DNA of 64,000 bases from an uncultured Actinomycetota bacterium (GCA_963735115.1 CAVTJR010000003.1:1352641-1416640), one strand, 5' to 3'; shown: positions 50,236-61,599, numbered from the stretch's first letter. The notes: a model not told the origin generated them from the letters alone. A program made the numbers and translations.

Positions 50236-50385
50236 CGGCCACCTCCCTCCCACTCGGAGGCGGAGGACGGTGGGGCCGAGGTGTCAAGCGTCAGCTGTTA
50301 CAGGGTCACGGATCACCCGTTACTGCGTTCCACATCACGCGTTATCGATCTGTGACAGATCAGGCGTGGTCTTACAGCTGATCGG

Positions 50386-50459
50386 TGCGCCCCCTGGGAC
50401 TCGAACCCAGAACCTGCGGATTAAGAGTCCGTTGCTCTGCCAAATTGAGCTAGAGGCGC
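50386..50459 (-). tRNA. tRNA-Lys (anticodon CTT)
   Basis: The reverse complement GCGCCTCTAGCTCAATTTGGCAGAGCAACGGACTCTTAATCCGCAGGTTCTGGGTTCGAGTCCCAGGGGGCGCA folds as a cloverleaf. The anticodon loop is CTCTTAA. Confidence 0.9.
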
Positions 50460-50557
50460 CTGCCGGCAGGCCAGACTAGTCGCTCCGGCCGACGACGGAG
50501 CTGAACCGCACTCGGGCACCACAAACTGCAACCGAGGCGCGACTCGACATCGAAACG

Positions 50558-50631
50558 GGTGGCCGAGGGGACTTGAACCCCCGACTTCCAGGACCACAAC
50601 CTGGCGCTCTGCCAACTGAGCTACGACCACC
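50558..50631 (-). tRNA. tRNA-His (anticodon GTG) with an encoded G-1
   Basis: The reverse complement is GGTGGTCGTAGCTCAGTTGGCAGAGCGCCAGGTTGTGGTCCTGGAAGTCGGGGGTTCAAGTCCCCTCGGCCACC. The anticodon loop is TTGTGGT, and the extra 5' G pairs with C73. Confidence 0.9.
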
Positions 50632-50805: not shown

Positions 50806-50834
50806 TTGACCGCTTCGCCTGCTTCGCCTAATTT
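50806..50834 (+). promoter_or_regulatory. Candidate sigma70-type promoter of the pst operon
   Basis: TTGACC (50806-50811), a 17-nt spacer, then TAATTT (50829-50834), about 58 nt before the GTG start. The spacer is a tandem GCTTCGCCT GCTTCGCC repeat, and the region is locally AT-richer. Confidence 0.3.
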
Positions 50835-50892
50835 CATAGTTTCAGTAGCAAATCAGGCCGTGCCCGACGGCCGCCGACAAAGGAGATACAGC

Positions 50893-52179
50893 GTGCCGAA
50901 TCAACGACGCCGCCGAGCGCGGGCCGGTCTCATCGGGGGGGTCTCGGTGCTGGCAGCGGTTGCCTGCATGAGCCTCACCGGCCTCGTAACGGCGAGCGCA
51001 TCCAACCTGCCGCCAGGTAACACCGTCATCATCGGAAGCGGATCACAGACCGCTTACAGCTTGATGACCGGCCTCGACGACCTCTTCAACTCCTCGCAAG
51101 GCTGCAACGAGATCGCCGCCGCCGGAACCTCCGAGGTCCAGTCGTTGAGCTTCAACTGTGCAGCCGGTCCTGCCGGCGCGGTCGGCTTGCCCGCCGCCAA
51201 CGGCGAGAACCCCCTCAATGACGTCGCCCTGCAGGAGCCGCCTCTCGGCGGTTCGAATGGCCTGAAGCAGCTCGAAGGGCAAGTTCCCGTGCTCGGGACC
51301 GAACCGATCAGCTTCGCCACGACGGTGCGAAACCCAACCGCCTCTGATCCGCAGGGCCTCAACTTCGTGAACTACGCCGACGACGCCATCTCCTGGTTCC
51401 ATTTCACCAAGGTGGGCAAGAAGGCGACCCCGTCGGCGAAGATCAAGTCGCTCACGATCTTGCAGCTGGAGAACATCTGGCTCGGGAACATCACCAACTG
51501 GAAGTCGCTCGGCGGCAAAAGCGCTCCCATCAAGGTGTACGTCACGAACTCGGGCTCAAGCTTGCTGACCATCTGGAATACCAGTCTCGGGAACATCAAC
51601 TCCCAGACGTACCCGGAGACAGAAGGTCCCTCCTACGTCATCGAGCAGAACGAGGACGCTTCGATCATCAAGAACGGCAACGAGGCTGACGCCATCTTCT
51701 TCTTCTCTCGCGGCCGCTTCCTGCAGACTTGTGACGAAGGCACCTGTGGTGGCTCGCGAATCCCTGGCGGTGGTACCACCGCCCTCGGCGAGATCAACGG
51801 GGTCAAACTCACCAACGCCAACATCTTGAGCGGCTTGTGGCCCGTCCGGGTCTTCCTGTCGAACGTGTACTCGGACGGCTCGAACTCCAAGATCCCGGCC
51901 GCCAACCAGGCGACGCTCAACTACGTGAGCGAAGACGGTTTCTTGTGCAAGTCGCAAACGTCCCACGGCAAGCGCATCCTCGACCCGCTCACAGGCGTGT
52001 GGTACCGCACCGAGATCGACAACCTCATCGCCGCCGATGGCTTCGTCCCGATACCGATCGGCTCAGAAGGGCTCGTCACGAACCCCGCAGTGCCCGGCTC
52101 GCCCTACAGCGGATACGACTCTTCCGGCAGCGACCCGAGGGGCTACTGCAAGGTGAGCACGACGGACGGGAACGCCTGA
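50893..52179 (+). CDS. PstS-like (PBP_like_2) substrate-binding protein, atypical
   Basis: AAAGGAG lies upstream of GTG 50893. The signal-like N-terminal part is RRRRARAGLIGGVSVLAAVACMSLTG. The body reads VIIGSGSQTAY...ADDAISWFHF...LTILQLENIWLGNITNWKSLGG...VTNSGSS. Codon usage looks AT-richer than in neighbouring genes. Confidence 0.75.
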   Translation: MPNQRRRRARAGLIGGVSVLAAVACMSLTGLVTASASNLPPGNTVIIGSGSQTAYSLMTGLDDLFNSSQGCNEIAAAGTSEVQSLSFNCAAGPAGAVGLPAANGENPLNDVALQEPPLGGSNGLKQLEGQVPVLGTEPISFATTVRNPTASDPQGLNFVNYADDAISWFHFTKVGKKATPSAKIKSLTILQLENIWLGNITNWKSLGGKSAPIKVYVTNSGSSLLTIWNTSLGNINSQTYPETEGPSYVIEQNEDASIIKNGNEADAIFFFSRGRFLQTCDEGTCGGSRIPGGGTTALGEINGVKLTNANILSGLWPVRVFLSNVYSDGSNSKIPAANQATLNYVSEDGFLCKSQTSHGKRILDPLTGVWYRTEIDNLIAADGFVPIPIGSEGLVTNPAVPGSPYSGYDSSGSDPRGYCKVSTTDGNA

Positions 52180-52213
52180 TCTCGACATCACAGCGACCAG
52201 GTGCGCAACTTCG

Positions 52214-52250
52214 CCCGGGTTCGGCTCTCTCCCTCGGAGCCGAATCCGGG
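52214..52250 (+). terminator. Intercistronic hairpin after the first pstS-like gene (attenuator or processing candidate)
   Basis: CCCGGGTTCGGCTC ... GAGCCGAATCCGGG form a 14-bp stem with one mismatch. More stems follow: CTCCGGCC/GGCCGGAG near 52396-52417 and CTGTCG/CGACAG just after. Confidence 0.4.
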
Positions 52251-52447
52251 CGACCGCACTGAGCAAGTGGAGGATCGAACATTCGAATCGCCTACAACCG
52301 AGCGGGACTCCCGCTGAACCTGAGGAAAGCGGGCTTTGCCGGTGGCGGGACTCGAGAATCCGGACTGATGAAAGCCACATTGCACCGAGCGACACTCCGG
52401 CCGAGGACGGCCGGAGCTGTCGCGTTGAAACGACAGTCGAGAGACGC

Positions 52448-53461
52448 TTGAGCAAGAGCACTGAGATGACCCCAGAAGGTGATGGCAGGTCGAGCGGACG
52501 GGACACGGCGGCGATGCCGCGGCCGGTCACGAGCGAGCACCGCTTGGACGATCGCCTGTTTCGCGGGGGCACGCGGAGCGTCGGACTTGCTGTCTTCGGG
52601 CTCTTGTTCGCCATCGGTGCCTTCCTGTTGTGGAAGTCCATGCCGGCCTTCGACAAGAACGGCCTCATCAGCTTTCTCACGACGACCGGCTTCACTACGA
52701 GCGGCGTCGCCCATCCGGTCTTCGGCGTGGCCGCCCTCCTCTTCTGGACAGTCGTCATCGCCCTCATCGCCGCCGTGATCGGTGTCCCCATCGCCGTCGG
52801 CACTGCGCTGTTCATCGTCGAATTCGCCCCGGCGCGGCTCCGACGCGTCCTCATCGCCGTAATCGACCTGCTGGCGGTCGTTCCCTCGATCATCTTCGGG
52901 CTGTGGGGAGTGTTCTTCCTGCAACCCCGGATGGTGGGCTTCGAGCAGTTCCTCTCCGCTCACCTGAGCTTCATCCCCATCTTCGCCACGACCTCGGCCG
53001 TGCTGAAAGGATCGGCATTCATCGCCGGCACGGTCGTTGGGATCATGATCGTGCCCATCGTCACCTCGATCACTCGCGAGATCTTCTCCCTCGCGCCGCA
53101 AGGAGAGCGAGAGGCGGCGCTCGCACTCGGCGCCAGCAAGGCATCGATGATCCGGGCCGTCGTGCTGCCGTTCGGACGCGGCGGCATGATCGGGGCGGTC
53201 ATGCTCGGGATCGGGCGGGCGATGGGAGAGACCGTCGCCGTGGCCACGATCATCTCGACCATCTTCGTCATCAACCCGCACATCTTGCAGGTGGGCGCCA
53301 ACTCGATCGCGGCCTTCATCGTGCTGCGCTTCGGAGCAGGCGGACCGCTTGGCTTGTCGGCGCTGATGGGGATCGGCTTCGTGCTCTTCTGCTTCACGTT
53401 GCTCGTGAACCTGGCTGCGTCCTTCATCGTGAACCGCTCGCGCACCGGAGCGAGCGCCTGA
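52448..53461 (+). CDS. pstC: Phosphate ABC transporter permease PstC
   Basis: The 337-aa polytopic protein reads ...REIFSLAPQGEREAALALGASKASMIRAVVLPFGRGGMIGAVMLGIGRAMGET.... Confidence 0.9.
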   Translation: MSKSTEMTPEGDGRSSGRDTAAMPRPVTSEHRLDDRLFRGGTRSVGLAVFGLLFAIGAFLLWKSMPAFDKNGLISFLTTTGFTTSGVAHPVFGVAALLFWTVVIALIAAVIGVPIAVGTALFIVEFAPARLRRVLIAVIDLLAVVPSIIFGLWGVFFLQPRMVGFEQFLSAHLSFIPIFATTSAVLKGSAFIAGTVVGIMIVPIVTSITREIFSLAPQGEREAALALGASKASMIRAVVLPFGRGGMIGAVMLGIGRAMGETVAVATIISTIFVINPHILQVGANSIAAFIVLRFGAGGPLGLSALMGIGFVLFCFTLLVNLAASFIVNRSRTGASA

Positions 53462-54606
53462 TGTCGATCGCCACACTCGAGAGAGCCGGGGCCACACCGC
53501 CCAACGAGCAGCCGAGCCCTCGCGACCTCCACCGGCGACGTCCCCGCCAATTCACCGGCACGGATCTCGTCGTGCTCGTCTCCTCGGCTCTGGCAGCAAT
53601 CAGCTTCGTGTGGATCGTCTTCTACCAGCTGACGCTGCTGGCCGGCGGCTCCGGCTTCGTGATCTGTGCCCTGCTGTCGTTCCTCGTCATCTACTACCTT
53701 GCGAATCGCAGCCTTTTCGGCCACATGGCGGCCGTCAATCGCGTGATCGGGGCGCTCGTGACCTCGAGCGCAGTCGCAGTCACCATCGCCCTCGCCCTCG
53801 TCGTGGTCTTCCTCGTCTCGCGCGGCTATCACCTCATCAGCCTGCACTTCCTGACCCACGACCAGGGTGACGTCACCCAGACGGCGCCGGCGAGCGCCGG
53901 TGGCGTCAGCCACGCGATCGTGGGCACGCTCGAACAGGTCGGTCTGGCAGTCGTCATCGGCGCCCCGGCAGGCATCATCACCGCCATCTTCATCAACGAG
54001 GTCGGCGGCCGCGTCACCTCCCTCGTGCGCACGGTCGTCACGGCCATGAGCGCCTTGCCGACGATCGTGGCCGGGTTGTTCATCTACGTCATCTACATCT
54101 CAGCCACCCATCACGGCTTCTCAGGCCTCGCCGGCTCCCTCGCATTGTCGATCATGCTGCTCCCGAACGTCACCCGCACCACTGAGGAGGTGCTGAAAGT
54201 CGTGCACGGGTCGCTGCGGGAGGCCTCCATGGCTCTCGGTGCACCGCAATGGCGGACCGTCTGGTCCGTCGTTCTGCCGACGGCGCGCGCCGGCATCGCC
54301 ACGGCGGTGCTGCTCGGCATCGCCCGCATCGTCGGAGAGACGGCCCCGCTGATCGTGACGATCTTCGGCAGCACCTTCATGCAGACGAACCCTCTGCATG
54401 CTCAAGAAGCCCTTCCCTTGTTCATCTGGCAGAGCTATGGCCTCCCCCGCCAGGCGGACATCGAGCGCGCCTTCGCCGCCGGCCTCGTCCTCGTCGGCCT
54501 CGTCCTCATCCTGTTCGTCCTCGCCCGTCTCGTCGCCTCCATCCGCCCGGGGGCGGTCCACCGCATGGTCACGAGGCTGCGCCCGAGCCGTCTGGAGGCA
54601 TCGTGA
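53461..54606 (+). CDS. pstA: Phosphate ABC transporter permease PstA (long N-terminal region)
   Basis: ATG 53461 overlaps the pstC stop (TGATG). The sequence reads ...TEEVLKVVHGSLREASMALGAPQWRTVWSVVLPTARAGIATAVLLGIARIVGETAPL.... Confidence 0.9.
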   Translation: MSIATLERAGATPPNEQPSPRDLHRRRPRQFTGTDLVVLVSSALAAISFVWIVFYQLTLLAGGSGFVICALLSFLVIYYLANRSLFGHMAAVNRVIGALVTSSAVAVTIALALVVVFLVSRGYHLISLHFLTHDQGDVTQTAPASAGGVSHAIVGTLEQVGLAVVIGAPAGIITAIFINEVGGRVTSLVRTVVTAMSALPTIVAGLFIYVIYISATHHGFSGLAGSLALSIMLLPNVTRTTEEVLKVVHGSLREASMALGAPQWRTVWSVVLPTARAGIATAVLLGIARIVGETAPLIVTIFGSTFMQTNPLHAQEALPLFIWQSYGLPRQADIERAFAAGLVLVGLVLILFVLARLVASIRPGAVHRMVTRLRPSRLEAS

Positions 54607-55457
54607 GCACGACCGAAGACTTCGTCTCTTCCGGCACCCTCTCGTCCCCCTACGACTCGGCGGCGCCCGCGGCCGCCTCGCACGCCTCCGAGCTCGTGGC
54701 CGAGGACGTCTCGGCCTGGTTCGGCGGCCACCTCGTCTTGGAGCGGGTGAGCCTTTCGATGGAGCGCTCCAAGGTGACGGCCCTCATCGGGCCTTCCGGC
54801 TGTGGCAAGTCGACGTTCTTGCGCATCTTGAACCGCATGCACGAGGTCGTGCCCGGGGCCGAGCTCGGCGGCCGGGTGCTCCTGGAGGGCGAAGACGTCT
54901 ACGGGCCGCAGATGCGCGCCACCGAGGTGCGCAAGCAAATCGGCATGGTCTTCCAGAAGCCCAACCCCTTCCCCGCCATGACCATCGAGCACAACGTGCT
55001 CGCCGGCCTGCGCTTTGCCGGCACGAAGGTGCGCGCCGCCGACCGCCGTGAGCTCGTGCAGGAGATGCTCGTGAAGGCCGGCCTGTGGAACGAGGTGCGC
55101 AACCGCCTCTCCGCCCTCGGGGGCGAGCTCTCCGGTGGCCAGCAGCAGCGCCTCTGCATCGCGCGGGCCCTGGCGGTGCGCCCGAACGTCTTGTTGATGG
55201 ACGAGCCCTGCTCGGCCCTCGACCCCACCTCCACGCGGCGCATCGAGGAGACGATCCGCGAGATCGCCGACGACGTCACCGTCGTCATCGTCACCCACAA
55301 CATGCAGCAGGCCCAGCGGGTGAGCCACGCCTGCGCCTTCTTCCTGGCGGCCGAGAACCAGCCGGGCCGCATCGTCGAGTCCGGCACGACCGAGCAGATC
55401 TTCGAGAGCCCGAGCGACGAGAGGACGGCGGACTATGTCCATGGGCGCTTCGGCTGA
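54603..55457 (+). CDS. pstB: Phosphate ABC transporter ATP-binding protein PstB
   Basis: GTG 54603 overlaps the pstA stop (GTGA). Motifs are GPSGCGKSTFLR (Walker A), LSGGQQQRLCIARA (signature), LLMDEPCSALDP (Walker B) and ...ADYVHGRFG. Confidence 0.95.
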   Translation: MSTTEDFVSSGTLSSPYDSAAPAAASHASELVAEDVSAWFGGHLVLERVSLSMERSKVTALIGPSGCGKSTFLRILNRMHEVVPGAELGGRVLLEGEDVYGPQMRATEVRKQIGMVFQKPNPFPAMTIEHNVLAGLRFAGTKVRAADRRELVQEMLVKAGLWNEVRNRLSALGGELSGGQQQRLCIARALAVRPNVLLMDEPCSALDPTSTRRIEETIREIADDVTVVIVTHNMQQAQRVSHACAFFLAAENQPGRIVESGTTEQIFESPSDERTADYVHGRFG

Positions 55458-57193
55458 GGGCTCGGCCGCGGCCGGCGGCCTCTCCCGCGGGATCGGTTGC
55501 GATCTCGCTCCTGGCGGCTCTGGCATTCGTGACCGTGTCGGCTCAGAGCGTCGGCATGACCCGGGCGCTCGCAGCCGGTCCGGAGGTCACCGGCGCAGGC
55601 TCGAGCTACGCCGCGCTCGCCATCAACAACTGGGACGCTCAGATCTCCACGGTCTACGGAGACACCGTCGACTACAGCACGTCCTCCTCCGTCATCGGCC
55701 TCAACCTGTTCGCCCAGAACCAGGTGACCTTCGGTGCCTCCGAGATCGGCTACTCGACCGGGCAAGCCAACTACACGCCCACGACGCCCTACCAGTACCT
55801 GCCCGACATCGCCGGGGCGACGTGCCTCATGTACAACGTCAAAGGCCGGCTGGGCAACCAGGTTCGATCGCTCAACCTCGACTCGCGGGTCCTGGCAGAG
55901 ATCTGGACGGGCACGATCACGAAGTGGGACGACCCAGCCATCGCCGCCATCAACCGAGGTGTCGACCTGCCGAACGCGCCCATCATCGCCGTCTTTCGCA
56001 CCGATGCGTCCGGGGAGAATTACGTCTTCTCCCAGTACCTCGACTACCTGCAGCCCGCCATCTGGGTGCCTTTCGTGAAGGCACTTCAGGCCGGCTCGCC
56101 CGTGAGCGCCGACTTCCCGCAGGGCAGCAGCAGCTCCCGCCGGTACCACCTCTCCAACTTCTTCGGTCAGAGCGGATCGGACGGCACCTCTGACCTCGTC
56201 GCCAGCACGAACGACGCCGTCACCTATGTCGAGACCGGCTATGCCATCTTGCACCACATGCCGTGCGCCTACGTGGAGAACGCCAGCCACAACTGGGTGC
56301 AGCCCTCGGAGGAGACCGACGCCGTCGGACTCGAGCGCGCCGAGCTGCTCCCCGACCTCGAGCAGAAGCTGCAAGGCGTCTACTCGAACCCGCTCCCGAG
56401 CGCCTACCCGATCTCCGCCTACAGCTACCTCATCACGCCCAAGGGCCCTGGTTCGATGTCGCCGGCGGAAGGGGCCGTCCTCGGCCAGTACATCCGCTTC
56501 TTCGCCTGCACGGGTCAGCAATCGGCCGGAACGCTCGGGTACTCGCCTCTTCCGCCCAACCTCGTTGACGCCGACTTCGCCGCCATCAACCGCATCCCCG
56601 GCGCAGCCAGAGCGCCGGCCGCCGCCACGGCGGCGAACTGTCCGGATCCATATGTCGACGGCCAAACCGTCCTCCCGGGCGAACCCTGCATCGTCGGGCA
56701 GCCCTGCCACTCCTCGGGCGGCGGCACGACGCCTCCGACCACGTTGCCCACCGCCACCATCACGACGACCACGACGGCGCCCACCAGCGGTGTCCCTCAC
56801 CACAAATCGGGCGGCTCCAAGCGCCACAACGCCGGCCACACCAAGCCAGCTCGCTCAGGTCAGCACTACGGCGGGGGCGGGAGCAGCGGCAGCGGGGGCG
56901 GCGGGACGACGAAGCCCGGGTCTCCGTCGCTCGCCAACGGACAATGGCCGGGCAAGAAGATCGTCCCTGGGGCGCAGCCGGGTGCCAACCTGCCGAATGG
57001 GCAGACCCTCGGCAATGAGCTCGCCACAGAGGACTTCACGTTGCTCGGTGTGAGAGTCTCGCCCGCGACGATGTGGGGCTCGGTCGCCTTGCTGATCCTC
57101 CTTCTCGCCGTCCCGCCCACCCTGGCCCGCGTGCGCAGGCGCCGGAAGCTCGGTCGCTTGGCCACGACGGACTCTCGTGGAGCTCGACAATGA
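55454..57193 (+). CDS. pstS: PstS-type phosphate-binding protein with a Thr-rich stalk, Gly/basic tract and C-terminal TM anchor
   Basis: The sequence reads GAGSSYAALAINNWDAQIS...FGASEIGYS...LAEIWTGTITKWDDPAI...TDASGENYVFSQYL. The C-terminal part is TTPPTTLPTATITTTTTAPT...GGGGSSGSGGGGTT...WGSVALLILLLAVPPTLARVRRRRK. The start is inferred as CTG 55454 overlapping the pstB stop (CTGA), because the frame has no ATG, GTG or TTG before the signal peptide. Confidence 0.75.
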   Translation: MRARPRPAASPAGSVAISLLAALAFVTVSAQSVGMTRALAAGPEVTGAGSSYAALAINNWDAQISTVYGDTVDYSTSSSVIGLNLFAQNQVTFGASEIGYSTGQANYTPTTPYQYLPDIAGATCLMYNVKGRLGNQVRSLNLDSRVLAEIWTGTITKWDDPAIAAINRGVDLPNAPIIAVFRTDASGENYVFSQYLDYLQPAIWVPFVKALQAGSPVSADFPQGSSSSRRYHLSNFFGQSGSDGTSDLVASTNDAVTYVETGYAILHHMPCAYVENASHNWVQPSEETDAVGLERAELLPDLEQKLQGVYSNPLPSAYPISAYSYLITPKGPGSMSPAEGAVLGQYIRFFACTGQQSAGTLGYSPLPPNLVDADFAAINRIPGAARAPAAATAANCPDPYVDGQTVLPGEPCIVGQPCHSSGGGTTPPTTLPTATITTTTTAPTSGVPHHKSGGSKRHNAGHTKPARSGQHYGGGGSSGSGGGGTTKPGSPSLANGQWPGKKIVPGAQPGANLPNGQTLGNELATEDFTLLGVRVSPATMWGSVALLILLLAVPPTLARVRRRRKLGRLATTDSRGARQ

Positions 57194-59577
57194 GCCGGCT
57201 GGCGCGCCTGCTTGCCGCTGCCGGCCTGGCAACGCTCGCGATCGCAGGACTGACGCTCGGGGCGACAGCGGCGCGGGCAACCCCGATGGGCGGTGCTGCC
57301 GGCGCCCGATCTGGGGCGACGCCGAAGCGGGCGTGTGCCCCCGGCGCCACCTGCGTGACGATCCCCTCCCCGTGTCCGTCCGGGTCGAGGTGCCCGACGG
57401 TGTCCGTAGAGCCGTCGAACGGCCTCGGCCAGAACCAGTGGATCTACCTGAATTTCTCCGACTTCGCCGCCGGAAGCGTCGCCCAGATTTACTACTGCGA
57501 GAACCAGACGCCGCTCACCGCCACCAGCCCGCCCTACTGCGTCCTCGAGGGCACGCCCACCTTCACCTACCCCAACCAGGAGCTCCCGATCTCGGCGAAC
57601 GGCAGCGGGGCGATGAGCTTCCAGACGCTCGACGACCCCAACGTGGCGGGTGACACCGCCCTCGTCGGTCAGATCCCGGGCGACACGACGGCGCCGCCGC
57701 AGAACTTCTATTGCGGCGACACCGCCGACCAGTGCTCGGTCGACGTCGTCGACTGGTCGCTCCTGAGCTCGCCGCGTCCGAGCAACATCGCCATCCCACT
57801 GCCGTCTGACACGGCCGTCATCCCGCTCGGATTCGCCCCACAGAGCAACGGCTGCCAGCAGGCGACGTTGGTGTCGACCTTCAGCGACAACAGCATCGAA
57901 TGGCTCATCCCGCACGAGTCGCCGGTCGTGTGCAAACAACAGCATGCCGCCGTCGCACTGAACACCTCCACGAGCACGTCGTTGATCCTGGGCTCGCTGC
58001 AAAACGGCAACGTCGTGTTCCTGGACGATCCGCAGGCGGCCGATGTGCGGGCGGCGCTCTCCAAGGTCCATTACGCCGTCGTACCGGTCGTGGCCTCTGC
58101 CGTCGTCATGGGATACGTCGCCGCCATGGAACAGCAAGGCCTCAGCTACCCGTTCAACGACTTCCGCCTGACGCCCAACGAAGTGGCCGGACTTGTCACC
58201 TATGCCTATCAGGGCCCTTACGACGGCGACCTCGTGAAATGCAAGGGCGGTCCGTGCTCCGCCCTGCAGGGCCTGAACTCCGTCCGGGGCTTCGTGGGCG
58301 CCGGCCAGTACGGGGTATTCATCCCCTCGGAGACAACAAGTGTCACCGAGACAATCACGAACTGGGTGTGCAACGCCCCAAACGTTCCCTTCGTGCTGAA
58401 CGGCAAGCTCATCACGGACCCGAACAGCGCCCAGAAGACGTTCACGACCTCGGTCAACCAGCGCCCGTGGCCGATCACCAGATGCACGACCTTCGACCAA
58501 TTCCCGGCGCTCAAGCCCTTTGCGACCTTGTTCGAGCAGGCGGCCGACCCGATCCATGCCGTGAAGTACCTCCGCACCTTCGCCGTCCCGCCCCAGTTCC
58601 AGCCCTCGCCCGTGGCAGGGTTCGCACCCATCGACTGGGGAGACGCCCGTTACTACGGCCTCGACGCTGCTGCCTTGCAGAACGCCGCCGGACAGTTCAT
58701 CGCCCCCAGCACGGCCTCGGTGCAGGCCGAGATAGCGGCCGAGCCTCTCTCGAACGCCGGCTACCCCCTTCCGGACGCCAAGCTGCGCGTGAGGGGCGGC
58801 TACCCGATGTCGACGGTCATCGACGCACTCGTGCCGGAAGGCCCGCTCCCAGCTACCCAATCGAAACCCATCGCCCAGATGATGACCGATCTCCTCGACT
58901 ACACGACGACGGCGCCCCTACCCGACGGCTATGTCCGGCTGCCGGCAAAGCTGAGGGCCCTCGCCCACCGGGAGCTCACGAACGCCCTGGAAGCTGAGAC
59001 GGGGGCGGTGACGAGGACGCGCGCCTTGATCCGGCCGACGTCGGTGACGCAGGGACACCCCGTCAGATACGTGGCGAAGGTGTCGTCAGCCCGCCGCAGC
59101 CCGACGGGGAACGTGACGTTCACGACGGGAGCGACAACGCTCTGCAGCGCCCAGCTGACAAGGGGGAGGGCGGCGTGCACGGCCTCGGACGCCCCGGTCG
59201 GCTTCGACAACGTGACGGCAAGCTACGCAGGTACCGTCAGTTTCGGTCCTTCGGTGGCCACGGCCACGCTCGACGTCTCGGCCCCTCCCCCGCCGCCTAC
59301 GACCGTCGTGACGGTCACCACGATGCCGCCGCGTTCGCGGACGACCACCACGACGACGACGGTGCGCTCGACCGTGCCCTCGACGGTGCCGTCCAAGGCC
59401 AAGGGGTCCGGCCCGAGCACGCTGTCGGTCGCCGACGTCAGGCTGGCGGCCGCAGCCGACAGCGTCGCCCTCCCGATTGCGCTCGCGGCGGGAGGGGCCT
59501 TGATCGCACTCAGTCTCGGACTGTCCTTCGTCGGAGTCCTTCGACGTCGCCACGCAGGTCGTACCGAGGGTGCCTGA
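57190..59577 (+). CDS. Large Cys-rich secreted protein with a PstS-like-looking core, Ig-like segment, Pro/Thr stalk and C-terminal TM anchor
   Basis: ATG 57190 overlaps the upstream stop (ATGA). The signal is MSRLARLLAAAGLATLAIAGLTLGATAARA. An Ig-like stretch reads GNVTFTTGATTLCSAQL...ASYAGTVSFGPS. The C-terminal part is PPPPPTTVVTVTT...TTTTTTTV... then ALPIALAAGGALIALSLGLSFVGVLRRRH. Confidence 0.7.
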   Translation: MSRLARLLAAAGLATLAIAGLTLGATAARATPMGGAAGARSGATPKRACAPGATCVTIPSPCPSGSRCPTVSVEPSNGLGQNQWIYLNFSDFAAGSVAQIYYCENQTPLTATSPPYCVLEGTPTFTYPNQELPISANGSGAMSFQTLDDPNVAGDTALVGQIPGDTTAPPQNFYCGDTADQCSVDVVDWSLLSSPRPSNIAIPLPSDTAVIPLGFAPQSNGCQQATLVSTFSDNSIEWLIPHESPVVCKQQHAAVALNTSTSTSLILGSLQNGNVVFLDDPQAADVRAALSKVHYAVVPVVASAVVMGYVAAMEQQGLSYPFNDFRLTPNEVAGLVTYAYQGPYDGDLVKCKGGPCSALQGLNSVRGFVGAGQYGVFIPSETTSVTETITNWVCNAPNVPFVLNGKLITDPNSAQKTFTTSVNQRPWPITRCTTFDQFPALKPFATLFEQAADPIHAVKYLRTFAVPPQFQPSPVAGFAPIDWGDARYYGLDAAALQNAAGQFIAPSTASVQAEIAAEPLSNAGYPLPDAKLRVRGGYPMSTVIDALVPEGPLPATQSKPIAQMMTDLLDYTTTAPLPDGYVRLPAKLRALAHRELTNALEAETGAVTRTRALIRPTSVTQGHPVRYVAKVSSARRSPTGNVTFTTGATTLCSAQLTRGRAACTASDAPVGFDNVTASYAGTVSFGPSVATATLDVSAPPPPPTTVVTVTTMPPRSRTTTTTTTVRSTVPSTVPSKAKGSGPSTLSVADVRLAAAADSVALPIALAAGGALIALSLGLSFVGVLRRRHAGRTEGA

Positions 59578-60550
59578 CGCGAGGCTCACCAAAGAGTCGC
59601 CACTCGTAGAAGACGTGCCTGACGCCCTTCCTGCCGAGGAAGCCACTGATGACGGCGAACCGGTTACGACCAGCTCCAGCGTGCCGGCGGGGACGGACTC
59701 CCGCAGGGGGCGCCGACGCCACCAGCCAGGCTCCATCGTCTTCACGGCTGCGGTCATCACCGCCGGCATGGGCCTTCTCGTGGCGGGCTTCGCCGTCTAC
59801 CTGTTCGGCTTCACGAGCCTGGAGGCCTTCCACGCCCAGCATCGCCTCGCTGAGCAGTTGGCCGGCTCGGCCGGCCTGGCCGCCCTCAATGGCACGACAC
59901 CGCCCGAAGGCGAGGCTGTCGCCATCCTCGACATCCCCACGATCGGGATCCGCCAAGTCGTGGTGGAGGGTACGTCGTCAGAGGATCTGGAAGCGGGCCC
60001 CGGCCTCTTGATCGGTTCCGCGCCGCCGGGGACGGGCGGCGACGTCGTCATCGCCGGGCGGCGCACGACCTACGGCTCCCCCTTCGCGCGCCTCGACCGG
60101 CTGAAGAACGGCGACACGGTCATCCTCACGGGTGCGCTCGGGGAATTCCGCTACACGGTGTCGACGACGCGGGTCGTCCGTCCCGGGTCCCCACTGCCGG
60201 CGAGCCCGACCAGCGCCGGCCGGTTGACGCTCGTCACCTCGACACCGGCTGTGGAGGCGTCGTCCCTCCTCGTCGTTACGGCCGATCTCGCCGGCAAGCC
60301 CGTCGCCTCCGTGCCGCTCAGCGACGCGGCGCTTCCCTCCACGCAATTCGGTCTGGCGGGCGACGGCGCCGCCGTGGCTCCGGCCATCGGCTGGGGCGGT
60401 GCCCTCATCGGCGTTCTTCTCTGTGCCTGGTACCTGTTGCGCAGGTCGAGAAAGACGTGGCTCGTCTACGGACTGGCAACCCCGATCGTGATCGCCGCTG
60501 CGATCCTCTGCTACGCCAACGTGGCGGCGCTGTTGCCTGCGACGTTGTGA
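59570..60550 (+). CDS. Class E sortase-fold membrane protein lacking the His/Cys/Arg catalytic triad
   Basis: It has an N-terminal TM helix. The sequence reads GEAVAILDIPTIGIRQVVVEGTSSEDLEAGPG...DVVIAGRRTTYGSPFARLDRLKNGD (sortases have AGHR here)...RLTLVTSTP (sortases have TLxTC)...SLLVVTADL (no Arg). Two additional C-terminal TM helices follow. Confidence 0.8.
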   Translation: MPDARLTKESPLVEDVPDALPAEEATDDGEPVTTSSSVPAGTDSRRGRRRHQPGSIVFTAAVITAGMGLLVAGFAVYLFGFTSLEAFHAQHRLAEQLAGSAGLAALNGTTPPEGEAVAILDIPTIGIRQVVVEGTSSEDLEAGPGLLIGSAPPGTGGDVVIAGRRTTYGSPFARLDRLKNGDTVILTGALGEFRYTVSTTRVVRPGSPLPASPTSAGRLTLVTSTPAVEASSLLVVTADLAGKPVASVPLSDAALPSTQFGLAGDGAAVAPAIGWGGALIGVLLCAWYLLRRSRKTWLVYGLATPIVIAAAILCYANVAALLPATL

Positions 60551-61083
60551 ACCCCGCCTTCGGCGGCGCGCCCAGCCGCTCGCACGGGCGGCGGCGCCTG
60601 GCGCTCGCCGCGGCCATCGCCGCGGTGTGCTTCGGCACCGGTGCCTGCTCCTCCGGCTCGAGGGCTGCTTCGTCGCCCCACGAGAGCACGACCTCCTCGA
60701 GGGTGCCCTCGAGCTCGACCGTCACTATGACAACGGTGCGCTATTCGGGATACGTGACCATCAAGGGCAAGAAGGTCGGCATCCCGGAGGAAGGCACGAC
60801 TCCGATCAGCCTGGTCGAGAACGTCGGCGAGCAGATCATCATCACGCCGAGCCGCATCGAGCCACACCTCCTCTTCGCCCAGGTCGACTACCGACTGACG
60901 TTCACGAACCTGACGTCGGCTCCCCAGCGGCTGCGTTTCGTGAACGACGGCAACTGGCGCTCACCCGCTATCCCGCCCGGCGGGACGTGGCACTACACGC
61001 CCCGCGACGGCATCTCCTACTACTTCGTCACCAGCACCGGGCTGCAGGCAACGTTCCAGGCATCCCCCGCCGGCGCCCCGTAG
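60547..61083 (+). CDS. Lipoprotein with a small beta-sandwich (cupredoxin-like?) domain
   Basis: GTG 60547 overlaps the upstream stop (GTGA). The signal plus lipobox is LALAAAIAAVCFGTGACSSG, followed by an S/T linker. The domain reads ...LTFTNLTSAPQRLRFVNDGNWRSPAIPPGGTWHYTP... The fold assignment is tentative. Confidence 0.65.
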   Translation: MNPAFGGAPSRSHGRRRLALAAAIAAVCFGTGACSSGSRAASSPHESTTSSRVPSSSTVTMTTVRYSGYVTIKGKKVGIPEEGTTPISLVENVGEQIIITPSRIEPHLLFAQVDYRLTFTNLTSAPQRLRFVNDGNWRSPAIPPGGTWHYTPRDGISYYFVTSTGLQATFQASPAGAP

Positions 61084-61092
61084 TCGGCCGGC

Positions 61093-61599
61093 TCAACCCG
61101 AGGCGACGGCCGCCCGCACGGCCTCCACGTCGCGGTGCATCTGCTCGATCAGCTGCTGGCTGTCGTCAAAACGCCCCTGGCCCCGCACGATGTGCCCTAC
61201 ACCCAGCCGCACGCGCTCCCCGTAGAGATCACCGTCGAAGTCGAGCAGGTACGCCTCAACGAGCCGGGCGCCCCCTTCGCCATAGTACGTAGGCCGCGTA
61301 CCCACCGAGATGGCCGCCACGAAACGACTGCCGTCCGCCCGCTCGAACCAGCCGGCGTAGACGCCATCGGCCGGGAGCACGCTGGTGCCGGGCACTTCGA
61401 CGTTCGCCGTCGGGAAGCCGAGCTCCCTCCCCCGCCCGTCGCCGTGCACGACCACACCTTCGAGCACGAGCTCCTCACCGTCGAGCACCGCCTTCGAGGC
61501 TACCGTCCCTCGACTGCCCGCTATCGTCCCGACCGTGCCCGGGAGCCGACCACTGTCACATGATCGAGACCTCGGTTCCCTGCCCGAGACCGTCGTCAT
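61093..61599 (-). CDS. Riboflavin kinase domain protein (monofunctional, no FAD synthetase domain)
   Basis: The sequence reads GVVVHGDGRGRELGFPTANVEV...DGVYAGW...ISVGTRPTY...VEAYLLDFDGDLYGERVRL. The real start is probably internal (for example GTG 61503). Confidence 0.8.
   Translation of the reverse strand: MTTVSGREPRSRSCDSGRLPGTVGTIAGSRGTVASKAVLDGEELVLEGVVVHGDGRGRELGFPTANVEVPGTSVLPADGVYAGWFERADGSRFVAAISVGTRPTYYGEGGARLVEAYLLDFDGDLYGERVRLGVGHIVRGQGRFDDSQQLIEQMHRDVEAVRAAVASG

Follow-up and report, generated by a model that had tools for sequence, protein, structure and literature searches.

What does a sortase homologue without catalytic residues do among the genes of a phosphate importer? The question is raised by a cluster of eight genes in a stretch of 64,000 nucleotides from an uncultured Actinomycetota bacterium (GCA_963735115.1 CAVTJR010000003.1:1352641-1416640), referred to here as the 64-kb window, whose positions serve as coordinates throughout. 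The cluster combines the Pst genes pstC, pstA and pstB with five genes that we label g1 and g5 to g8: g5 encodes a membrane-tethered PstS, g6 a large protein with a PstS-like middle, g7 the sortase homologue, g8 a small putative lipoprotein and g1 a diverged binding protein. The eight genes themselves are real, and we are highly confident of their identities and of their functional linkage to Pst. The best overall explanation, to which we assign a probability of about 0.55, is a variant of the Pst importer composed of a transport module and an accessory module, and the dead sortase probably serves phosphate uptake in an undescribed way that involves no catalysis.

A sortase fold without catalytic residues

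The g7 protein matches the Pfam Sortase family (PF04203, 70.2 bits), and its best NCBIfam match is class_E_sortase (NF033747), at 84.7 bits and thus under the cutoff of 160. Its best sequence match is SrtE of Streptomyces avermitilis (5go6, E 2.1e-12). The AlphaFold2 model (predicted local distance difference test score, pLDDT, 81) has helices at residues 54-98, 266-292 and 296-321 and an eight-stranded barrel at 116-240, and the protein is built from an N-terminal transmembrane helix, an extracytoplasmic sortase barrel, two C-terminal transmembrane helices and an LLPATL tail. The neighbours of this model in Foldseek are all sortases, of classes D, A, C and E (E 5e-13 to 1e-10). When g7 is compared with 5go6, the catalytic His is replaced by Arg (VIAGRR, against the AGHR motif), the catalytic Cys by Ser (LTLVTSTP, against the TLxTC motif) and the Arg of strand beta-8 by Leu233 (SSLLVV versus HRLIV). 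An earlier note, made from the sequence of the window alone, had proposed a sortase fold without catalytic residues, and this description stands, His, Cys and Arg having given way to R, S and L.

The same catalytic replacements recur over about 130 g7 homologues. Among 86 genomic homologues the Cys position is occupied by Ser in 33 and by Ala in 36, with Thr, Gly and others in the rest and Cys in none. A profile search of 1.84 billion representatives returned 1,995 proteins at E <= 1e-30, and in the best 143 of these, for which catalytic residues were counted, 132 are without the Cys and 11 carry the full triad. The His is kept in 25 of the 132 Cys-less clusters, most of which also keep the Arg (H-S-R, H-A-R). 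These patterns suggest that loss of the Cys preceded loss of the His within the family. The catalytic Arg is kept in most family members and is lost in the clade of the window, and R164 of g7, which stands at the His position, is invariant in one alignment of the family. A neighbour-joining tree of 198 sequences groups the four that bear the Cys into one small clade, a topology that fits a single origin of the Cys-less family, which is apparently monophyletic. Since the nucleophilic Cys is lost and the His mostly lost, no Cys-dependent transpeptidation by g7 is expected, and from these residues we consider it very probable that g7 is non-catalytic.

The membrane-embedded parts of g7 show a different kind of conservation. 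P305 and the LLP tail are conserved, and the N-terminal cytoplasmic region is variable and disordered. The exoplasmic tails of family members read LLPATL, LLPNLY or FLPATV, and those of active relatives LFPANI or LFPASV; indeed, the nearest active relatives (P0075 and P0097) have the same whole architecture, including the C-terminal helices. By the positive-inside rule the last helix (296-321), with an RRSRK loop ahead of it, runs N-in/C-out. This arrangement can be likened to SafA, a signal peptidase antagonist that shields a class E sortase and that consists of a 52-residue N-in/C-out helix, in which PGP precedes the membrane span and FPW follows it (PMC9282373). A domain resembling SafA occurs fused to the C-terminus of a sortase in Bifidobacterium dentium (PMC9282373). 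According to that description, SafA and the last helix of g7 would share the N-in/C-out orientation, a Pro before the span and an exoplasmic hydrophobic-Pro motif after it, whereas the g7 motif is LP[AN] and not FPW, and an extra g7 helix joins the barrel to the module. We also considered that the LLPATL tail might be an auto-bound pseudo-substrate, and set this aside because the SafA module, with PGP, the transmembrane helix and FPW, and on record as a fusion to a class E sortase, explains the tail more simply (PMC9282373).

One further homologue has an unusual composition. Protein P0197 (838 residues) carries a Cys-less sortase homologue (VIVGHRTTYG, LTLVTSTP) at residues 568-838, preceded by about 560 polytopic residues that resemble a membrane glycosyltransferase; it may be a real fusion or a frame artefact.

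Linkage to Pst across two phyla

The linkage of the extra genes to the transporter was assessed in related genomes. One genome per GTDB species was scanned with the family peptide GRR[TSA]T[YFA]G[ASK]PF and a 12-sequence alignment, giving 115 relatives, from which 80 loci were taken. The six-frame open reading frames (ORFs) of 86 loci, all collected through a g7 homologue, were scanned with hidden Markov models (HMMs) made from the window proteins; 55 loci are well flanked, with at least 8 kb on each side. In these 55, pstC, pstA, pstB and g5 are all found in 48, a g6-like gene in 52, a g1-like gene in 47 and g8 in 19, and the genes that are missing are mostly frame-broken ORFs. Carriers include Acidimicrobiia, Streptosporangiaceae, Frankia, Nocardioides (N. 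fonticola and N. marmorisolisilvae), Marmoricola, Dactylosporangium fulvum, Trebonia kvetii, Catenulisporales, Pseudonocardiaceae and Nanopelagicales, as well as a separate phylum, Candidatus Dormiibacterota.

Across these two phyla the genes occur in at least five orders. With C, A and B standing for pstC, pstA and pstB, these are the window type, g1-C-A-B-g5-g6-g7-g8(-g1); g1-C-A-g6-g5-g7-B; g6-g7-B-C-A-g5; C-A-g5-(g1)-g6-g7-B; and a divergent arrangement in which g5-B-A-C faces g6-g7-g1. The g7 gene often lies between pstS and pstB. In the isolate Trebonia kvetii, for example, the order is pstC-pstA-g6-g5-g7-pstB, with overlaps of 4 nt or gaps of at most 9 nt. That the gene set is kept together through at least five orders is strong evidence of a common function, and the functional linkage of the extra genes to Pst is thus strongly supported by comparison of gene content and order. 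The earlier note had tied the extra genes to the transporter and had named a lack of synteny with pst genes in relatives as the result that would speak against this; such synteny is amply present. Its eight-gene unit, in contrast, is recovered in Acidimicrobiia and Dormiibacterota only, g8 being found in only 19 of the 55 well-flanked loci. Nocardioides fonticola (locus L048, 15787-19810) additionally carries a second pstC-pstA-PstS set directly 3' of its g6-g7-pstB-pstC-pstA-g5 cluster.

A genuine PstS on a membrane tether

HMM searches with Pfam and NCBIfam agree with the domain calls made from the sequence of the window. PstC and PstA exceed the cutoffs of their families (TIGR02138, 242.4 bits against 196.45; TIGR00974, 224 bits against 193.45), and PstB has TIGR00972 as its best family (329.7 bits, cutoff 343.2) together with ABC_tran (115.8 bits). 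The g5 protein scores 195.8 bits against TIGR00975 (cutoff 205) and 77.6 bits against PF12849, and matches PstS structures in the PDB down to E 4.6e-29. Its anion-site motifs are GAGSSY, FGASE and RTDASGE, and 64 orthologues keep the corresponding G[AS]GS[ST][WY], F[AG]xS[DE] and R[ST]D[GA]SG[TAE]. The phosphate-site residues of E. coli PstS are T10/F11, S38, D56, R135 and S139-G-T141. By homology and by its site motifs g5 is a genuine PstS, and phosphate binding is predicted. Downstream of the binding domain lie about 190 low-complexity residues, a single transmembrane helix and an Arg cluster, and in the anchor (V/A/G)PP or GP is conserved some 6-8 residues ahead of RRRR. LPXTG and LAXTG motifs are absent from g5 anchors in the window and in relatives.

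The 5' end of g5 deserves separate mention. The PstS-body frame has no ATG, GTG or TTG ahead of 55529, and the earlier note had placed a CTG start at 55454, within a CTGA overlap with pstB. Relatives start g5 at a conserved ATG instead: in loci L001, L007 and L009 the protein begins with 'MST.AS.E' at an ATG within the 3' end of pstB, and in L001 the resulting overlap with pstB measures 23 nt. This ATG is present in the window too, at 55435 (MSMGASAEG), 23 nt ahead of the pstB stop and one frame off the PstS body. The CTG start was dropped, as the conserved ATG combined with a frame break fits the relatives. Because the ATG is out of frame with the body, an apparent 1-nt insertion or deletion is placed in approximately 55458-55528; the surrounding sequence (55435-55530) is a GC-rich stretch. 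Frame breaks or split pst and g5 ORFs also occur in related long-read metagenome assemblies (L002-L004), and an assembly error is therefore the simplest reading of the break in g5, with a real lesion as the alternative.

A probable pseudo-receptor with the same kind of anchor

The AlphaFold2 model of g6, made from a 25-sequence alignment (pLDDT 75.9), gives the order signal peptide, beta-sandwich, PstS fold, Big_3_5 immunoglobulin (Ig) domain, disordered Thr-rich linker, C-terminal transmembrane helix and RRR tail. Big_3_5 scores 55.7 bits, and the PstS match of the g6 sequence by itself is weak. Foldseek places the model with PstS structures (E 1.4e-11 to 1e-7, TM-score normalised on the target 0.67-0.77), among them 7xg8, 8ods and 7dm1 (E 1e-11 to 1e-9), and the best match of the g6 family profile is M. 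tuberculosis PstS-1 (E 1.2e-6). Both results bear out the proposal that the middle of g6 is a diverged PstS fold. All three PstS site motifs are kept in only two of 71 g6-like proteins, and g6 is best described, from its sequence family and predicted fold, as a pseudo-receptor or as a receptor for another ligand.

The N-terminal sandwich of g6 has enediyne-antibiotic apo-chromoproteins as its Foldseek neighbours (2mcm and 1nco, TM-score on the target 0.76-0.79). This region (residues ~50-190, encoded at 57340-57760) resembles neocarzinostatin, macromomycin and C-1027, with a weak match to the NCBIfam model chromo_anti (E 0.004), and the likeness is probably merely that of a common Ig-like sandwich.

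In 50 of 66 g6-like proteins the transmembrane helix has, at its outer edge, a hydrophobic-hydrophobic-Pro motif, usually in the form R-[YFLM]-x-[LV]-P (like RYALP, RFILP, RYFVP and RLALP). It occupies the site that LPXTG holds in true sortase substrates, and no LPXTG or LAXTG is found in g6 anchors of the window or of relatives. Thus g5 and g6 are both built like sortase substrates, with a signal peptide, ectodomain, linker, one hydrophobic helix and a basic tail, and the sorting motif is missing. In both proteins the anchor motifs are conserved and the linkers are variable.

Layout of the cluster and its outer genes

The cluster comprises nine plus-strand features flanked by a tRNA-His gene and a convergent gene (Table 1). 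Five start/stop overlaps read from the sequence proved exact: TGATG at 53459-53463 (pstC/pstA), GTGA at 54603-54606 (pstA/pstB), ATGA at 57190-57193 (g5/g6), GTGCCTGA at 59570-59577 (g6/g7) and GTGA at 60547-60550 (g7/g8). The 64-kb window showed no phoU, no second pst set, no further sortase and no LPXTG-type C-terminus in a search where the HMMs covered the cluster genes only and the absence of phoU was not formally tested. A pst operon without phoU is normal in Actinomycetota, and its lack is no anomaly.

Table 1. Features of the pst cluster and its immediate flanks, in window coordinates
Feature	Position	Strand	Description
tRNA-Lys(CTT)	50384-50459	-	directly upstream of the cluster
tRNA-His(GTG)	50557-50630	-	directly upstream of the cluster
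Terminator-like hairpin	50730-50707	-	between tRNA-His and g1
Tandem 9-nt repeat	50812-50829		GCTTCGCCT, two copies
g1	50893-52179	+	diverged secreted PstS-family-2-like binding protein, 428 residues; first cluster gene
g1-pstC spacer	52180-52447	+	268 nt, strongly folded
GC hairpin within spacer	52212-52252	+	18 bp
pstC	52448-53461	+	permease, TIGR02138
pstA	53461-54606	+	permease, TIGR00974
pstB	54603-55457	+	ATPase, TIGR00972 best family, ABC_tran
g5	55435-57193	+	PstS domain, ~190-residue stalk, C-terminal transmembrane helix, RRRR tail; conserved ATG out of frame with body
g6	57190-59577	+	795 residues, Cys-rich, anchored, putative PstS-fold pseudo-receptor
g7	59570-60550	+	class-E-like sortase homologue without catalytic residues
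g8	60547-61083	+	small putative lipoprotein, cupredoxin-like, without copper ligands
Convergent gene	61093-61599		downstream flank

The first gene, g1, is preceded by a good ribosome-binding site (AAAGGAG, ahead of the GTG at 50893). Its product matches PF12849 (32.8 bits, cutoff 27) and a fragment of TIGR02136, with PBP-1 of C. perfringens as best PDB match (4gd5, E 7.5e-8). The anion-site motif REDGSGT has become TNSGSSL in the window and AQxGSGT in orthologues, which have lost the Arg. The gene is mildly AT-richer, as proposed, at a GC content of 0.60-0.62 against 0.65-0.73 downstream. Tandem duplications of a g1-like gene occur in L009 (150-3013), L022, L050, L061, L068, L073, L078 and L086. 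About 65 nt 5' of the g1 start, the tandem repeat of GCTTCGCCT is followed by the AT-rich TTTCAtagTTTCA; the repeat is not shared with the upstream regions of L001-L004 and may be a regulator site.

The spacer between g1 and pstC, already described as structured in the earlier note, has a minimum free energy of -128.8 kcal/mol (z = -6.2 versus shuffled sequence), with the hairpin as its main feature. A comparably strong hairpin of unrelated sequence lies 3' of g1 in L001, L002, L004, L041, L061, L064, L068, L078 and L086, nine loci that span different lineages. No second copy of the hairpin arms occurs in the window, so that the hairpin is no dispersed repeat, and a riboswitch or other known RNA was rejected for the 268-nt spacer, as Rfam gives no match even at E < 1. 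A stem-loop between pstS and pstC is common in pst operons. As the hairpin is conserved in this position 3' of g1, g1 is likely to be expressed at a level unlike that of the downstream genes, and it is possibly a separate transcription unit. The co-transcription of g1 with the transporter assumed in the earlier note is not borne out, given such hairpins 3' of g1 in many lineages.

At the other end of the cluster, g8 belongs to no family of Pfam or NCBIfam. The profile built from 12 orthologues matches the cupredoxin domain of 9cck (E 6.8e-6) and plastocyanins (E 0.007-0.1) in the PDB, in agreement with its proposed identity as a cupredoxin-like small lipoprotein. Of the type-1 copper ligands (His, Cys, His and Met), the first His is replaced by Gln in a conserved 'PQ', and the 12-sequence alignment has no C-x-x-H-x-x-x-x-M segment. 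Orthologues carry a lipobox-like VGGC or LAAC, and the window GTGAC.

Candidate Pho control

PHO-box-like double repeats were sought with a Streptomyces-type consensus. In related loci 26 of 57 hits fall within the 7.1% of sequence that lies 5' of g1, pstC, g5 or g6, where 4.1 would be expected (p = 2e-15, 23 loci). The cluster is probably under Pho control because of these repeats in related loci, though none is present in the window. In L041, L068, L078 and L086 the g1-pstC spacer has, 3' of the hairpin, GTTCAC-type repeats with an 11-nt spacing that resemble Streptomyces PHO boxes, and their position suggests a separate Pho-dependent promoter for pstC-...-g7-pstB in these four loci. The upstream regions of the window share no motif with those of L001-L004. 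Within the cluster, promoter-like and terminator-like sites are not found above chance, a result that lends weak support to a single transcript but is no proof of it.

Comparison with known systems

The cluster shares with E. coli PstSCAB (cryo-EM structures 9k3s and 9k3x are among the PDB matches) the PstC, PstA, PstB and PstS components with standard anion-site motifs, as well as translational coupling and a hairpin 3' of the first binding-protein gene. Unlike that system, its PstS sits on a stalk of about 190 residues with a C-terminal transmembrane helix and is neither periplasmic nor lipid-anchored, the cluster adds two more members of the PstS superfamily (g1 and g6) as well as a membrane protein of sortase fold and a putatively cupredoxin-like lipoprotein, and phoU is not in the cluster.

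The pst locus of M. tuberculosis holds several PstS paralogues in one region. Multiple PstS paralogues per locus (PstS-1, -2 and -3; 1pc3, 7dm1 and 4lvq) are found there as here, but the M. tuberculosis proteins are lipoproteins with intact phosphate sites, and their locus has no sortase-like gene, transmembrane-tethered receptor or pseudo-receptor. The LAXTG-specific class E sortases (S. avermitilis SrtE, 5go5/5go6; S. coelicolor SrtE1, 5cuw; T. fusca SrtE, 9iok) have the fold and N-terminal transmembrane anchor of g7, whereas the pst-linked family has no Cys and mostly Arg for His, lacks an LAXTG or LPXTG substrate nearby and is constantly linked to pst.

iRhom and Derlin are pseudoenzymes derived from membrane-associated proteases, and bind transmembrane clients. 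They offer an analogy only, that of a dead relative of an enzyme for membrane-proximal or transmembrane segments, conserved with a new role; the fold of g7 and its organisms are unrelated to theirs, and client binding by g7 is hypothetical. Full-text literature searches (sortase with PstS, pst or pseudo-enzyme, and membrane-anchored PstS) returned no account of a sortase that is pst-linked or catalytically dead, and neither NCBIfam nor Pfam has a model specific to g6, g7 or g8. In public databases the g7 family is named 'sortase' or 'sortase A', and g6 'Ig-like domain-containing protein'.

What the dead sortase may do

In the lineage-typical variant of the high-affinity importer that we propose, PstC, PstA, PstB and g5 would form the transport module, with g5 held at the outer membrane face by its long flexible stalk and C-terminal transmembrane helix and not by a lipid anchor. 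The accessory core would be the g6-g7 pair, usually with g1 and, in Acidimicrobiia and Dormiibacterota, with g8. We suppose that the ancestor of g7 was a housekeeping sortase of class E, probably fused to a SafA-like C-terminal helix, and that g7 would have kept the barrel and the membrane embedding and lost the chemistry. With g6 tethered in the same way as g5, g7 could be a non-covalent adaptor that recognises the sorting-signal-like anchors of g6, and perhaps of g5, by reading a membrane-edge Pro motif, then the transmembrane helix, then the Arg cluster. The tethered receptors would stay assembled beside PstCA, so that the permease, inside a thick cell wall, would always have a phosphate-loaded receptor within reach. 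This adaptor mechanism specifically is inferred and tentative. A sharper version, in which the sortase fold has been repurposed so that g7 clamps the R-[YF]-x-L-P of g6 and the PP anchor of g5, giving a fixed receptor array or a gate on PstCA, is a somewhat doubtful proposal. The earlier note had envisaged an envelope-spanning phosphate capture or hand-off module; g6 is without PstS anion-site motifs in almost all lineages, and this loss argues against a simple three-receptor relay.

Several points weigh against the proposed importer variant. Contact of g7 with g5 or g6 is hypothetical, and the anchor motifs of g5 and g6 could be structural helix features instead of recognition sites. An apparent g6-g7 fusion, P0161 (980 residues; L016, 9000-10100), was rejected: the true g6 end (SRYQLLLP, a transmembrane helix, RLRARRRP and a stop) lies in another frame, so that the protein is a frameshift or indel artefact and gives no evidence of g6-g7 contact. 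A capture role for g6 is uncertain given its missing phosphate-site motifs, and the 5' end of g5 is broken in the window. The operon structure is read from overlaps and from the lack of terminator-like sites above chance, not from transcripts. As for Pho control, the window has no PHO-box-like repeats even with two mismatches, and the consensus derives from Streptomyces work.

The main rival, which we judge unlikely, treats g6 and g7, with g1 and g8, as a regulatory or gating module. In this view g7 would hold g6, which would either sense PstS as it docks on PstCA or compete with it there, and would modulate transport or report phosphate status to the Pho two-component system. It is typical of a pseudo-receptor that g6 keeps the PstS fold, including the C-terminal lobe, with the motifs lost in 69 of 71 homologues; the divergent gene order separates g6-g7-g1 from pstCAB-g5, and no phoU lies within the cluster (as far as HMMs aimed at the cluster genes can tell). 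However, neither g6 nor g7 has a cytoplasmic signalling domain, the N-terminal cytoplasmic region of g7 is variable and disordered, and in many lineages both genes lie between pstA and pstB, like those of structural subunits.

It is improbable that the cluster transports another anion, such as phosphite, arsenate, a phosphoester or polyphosphate, with g1 and g6 giving specificity. The loss of the site Arg in g1 orthologues (AQxGSGT), the loss of the motifs in g6 and the scores of PstB and g5 slightly under their equivalog cutoffs would all agree with such a change of substrate. PstC and PstA, however, are above their equivalog cutoffs, every PstS site motif is kept in g5 across lineages, and PHO-box-like repeats lie upstream in 23 loci.

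Less probable still is that g7 remains an enzyme, with Ser as nucleophile for example, that cleaves or transfers the anchors of g5 and g6 for release or wall attachment. Ser does stand in for Cys in the window and in roughly one half of the family, the neighbouring Thr is invariant, as is the following Arg (R165), the third catalytic residue, Arg, is kept in most members, and the anchors resemble sorting signals in their transmembrane helix and basic tail. Yet the place of the Cys is taken by Ala in 36 of the 86 genomic homologues and by Gly, Thr, Val or Leu in others, leaving no conserved nucleophile, the general-base His is Arg in most members, and neither g5 nor g6 has an LPXTG or LAXTG. 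Half of the family has Ala, Gly or Thr at this position, and the alternation of Ser with Ala and Gly makes an enzyme with a Ser nucleophile very unlikely. Least credible of all is that the extra genes are leftovers of a sortase and its substrates, passengers in decay that serve no pst function, for although the catalytic residues are lost and g5 is frameshifted in the window, the family stands at 30-80% identity with invariant non-catalytic positions, spans two phyla, at least five gene orders and more than 130 clusters at 50% identity, and its frame breaks are concentrated in long-read metagenome-assembled genomes.

Implications

A variant Pst importer with an accessory module, the reading that we prefer, bears on both annotation and physiology. 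Generic names like those given to the g6 and g7 families inflate sortase counts and hide the Pst-linked module. Pst is the classic high-affinity importer of phosphate, and sortases are classic cysteine transpeptidases. A large Cys-less sortase family within the pst operons of abundant soil lineages (Acidimicrobiia, Frankia, Nocardioides, Streptosporangiaceae and Dormiibacterota) points to a non-enzymatic use of the sortase fold, and to an unrecognised accessory part of phosphate acquisition in thick-walled bacteria. If the fold has indeed been repurposed, this would make g7 the first pseudo-sortase to have a cellular role, and g7 would define a new class of accessory subunit of ATP-binding cassette (ABC) importers; a receptor-clamping g7 would then be widespread in soil Actinomycetota and Candidatus Dormiibacterota. 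Cultured carriers are available, and the question is open to direct test.

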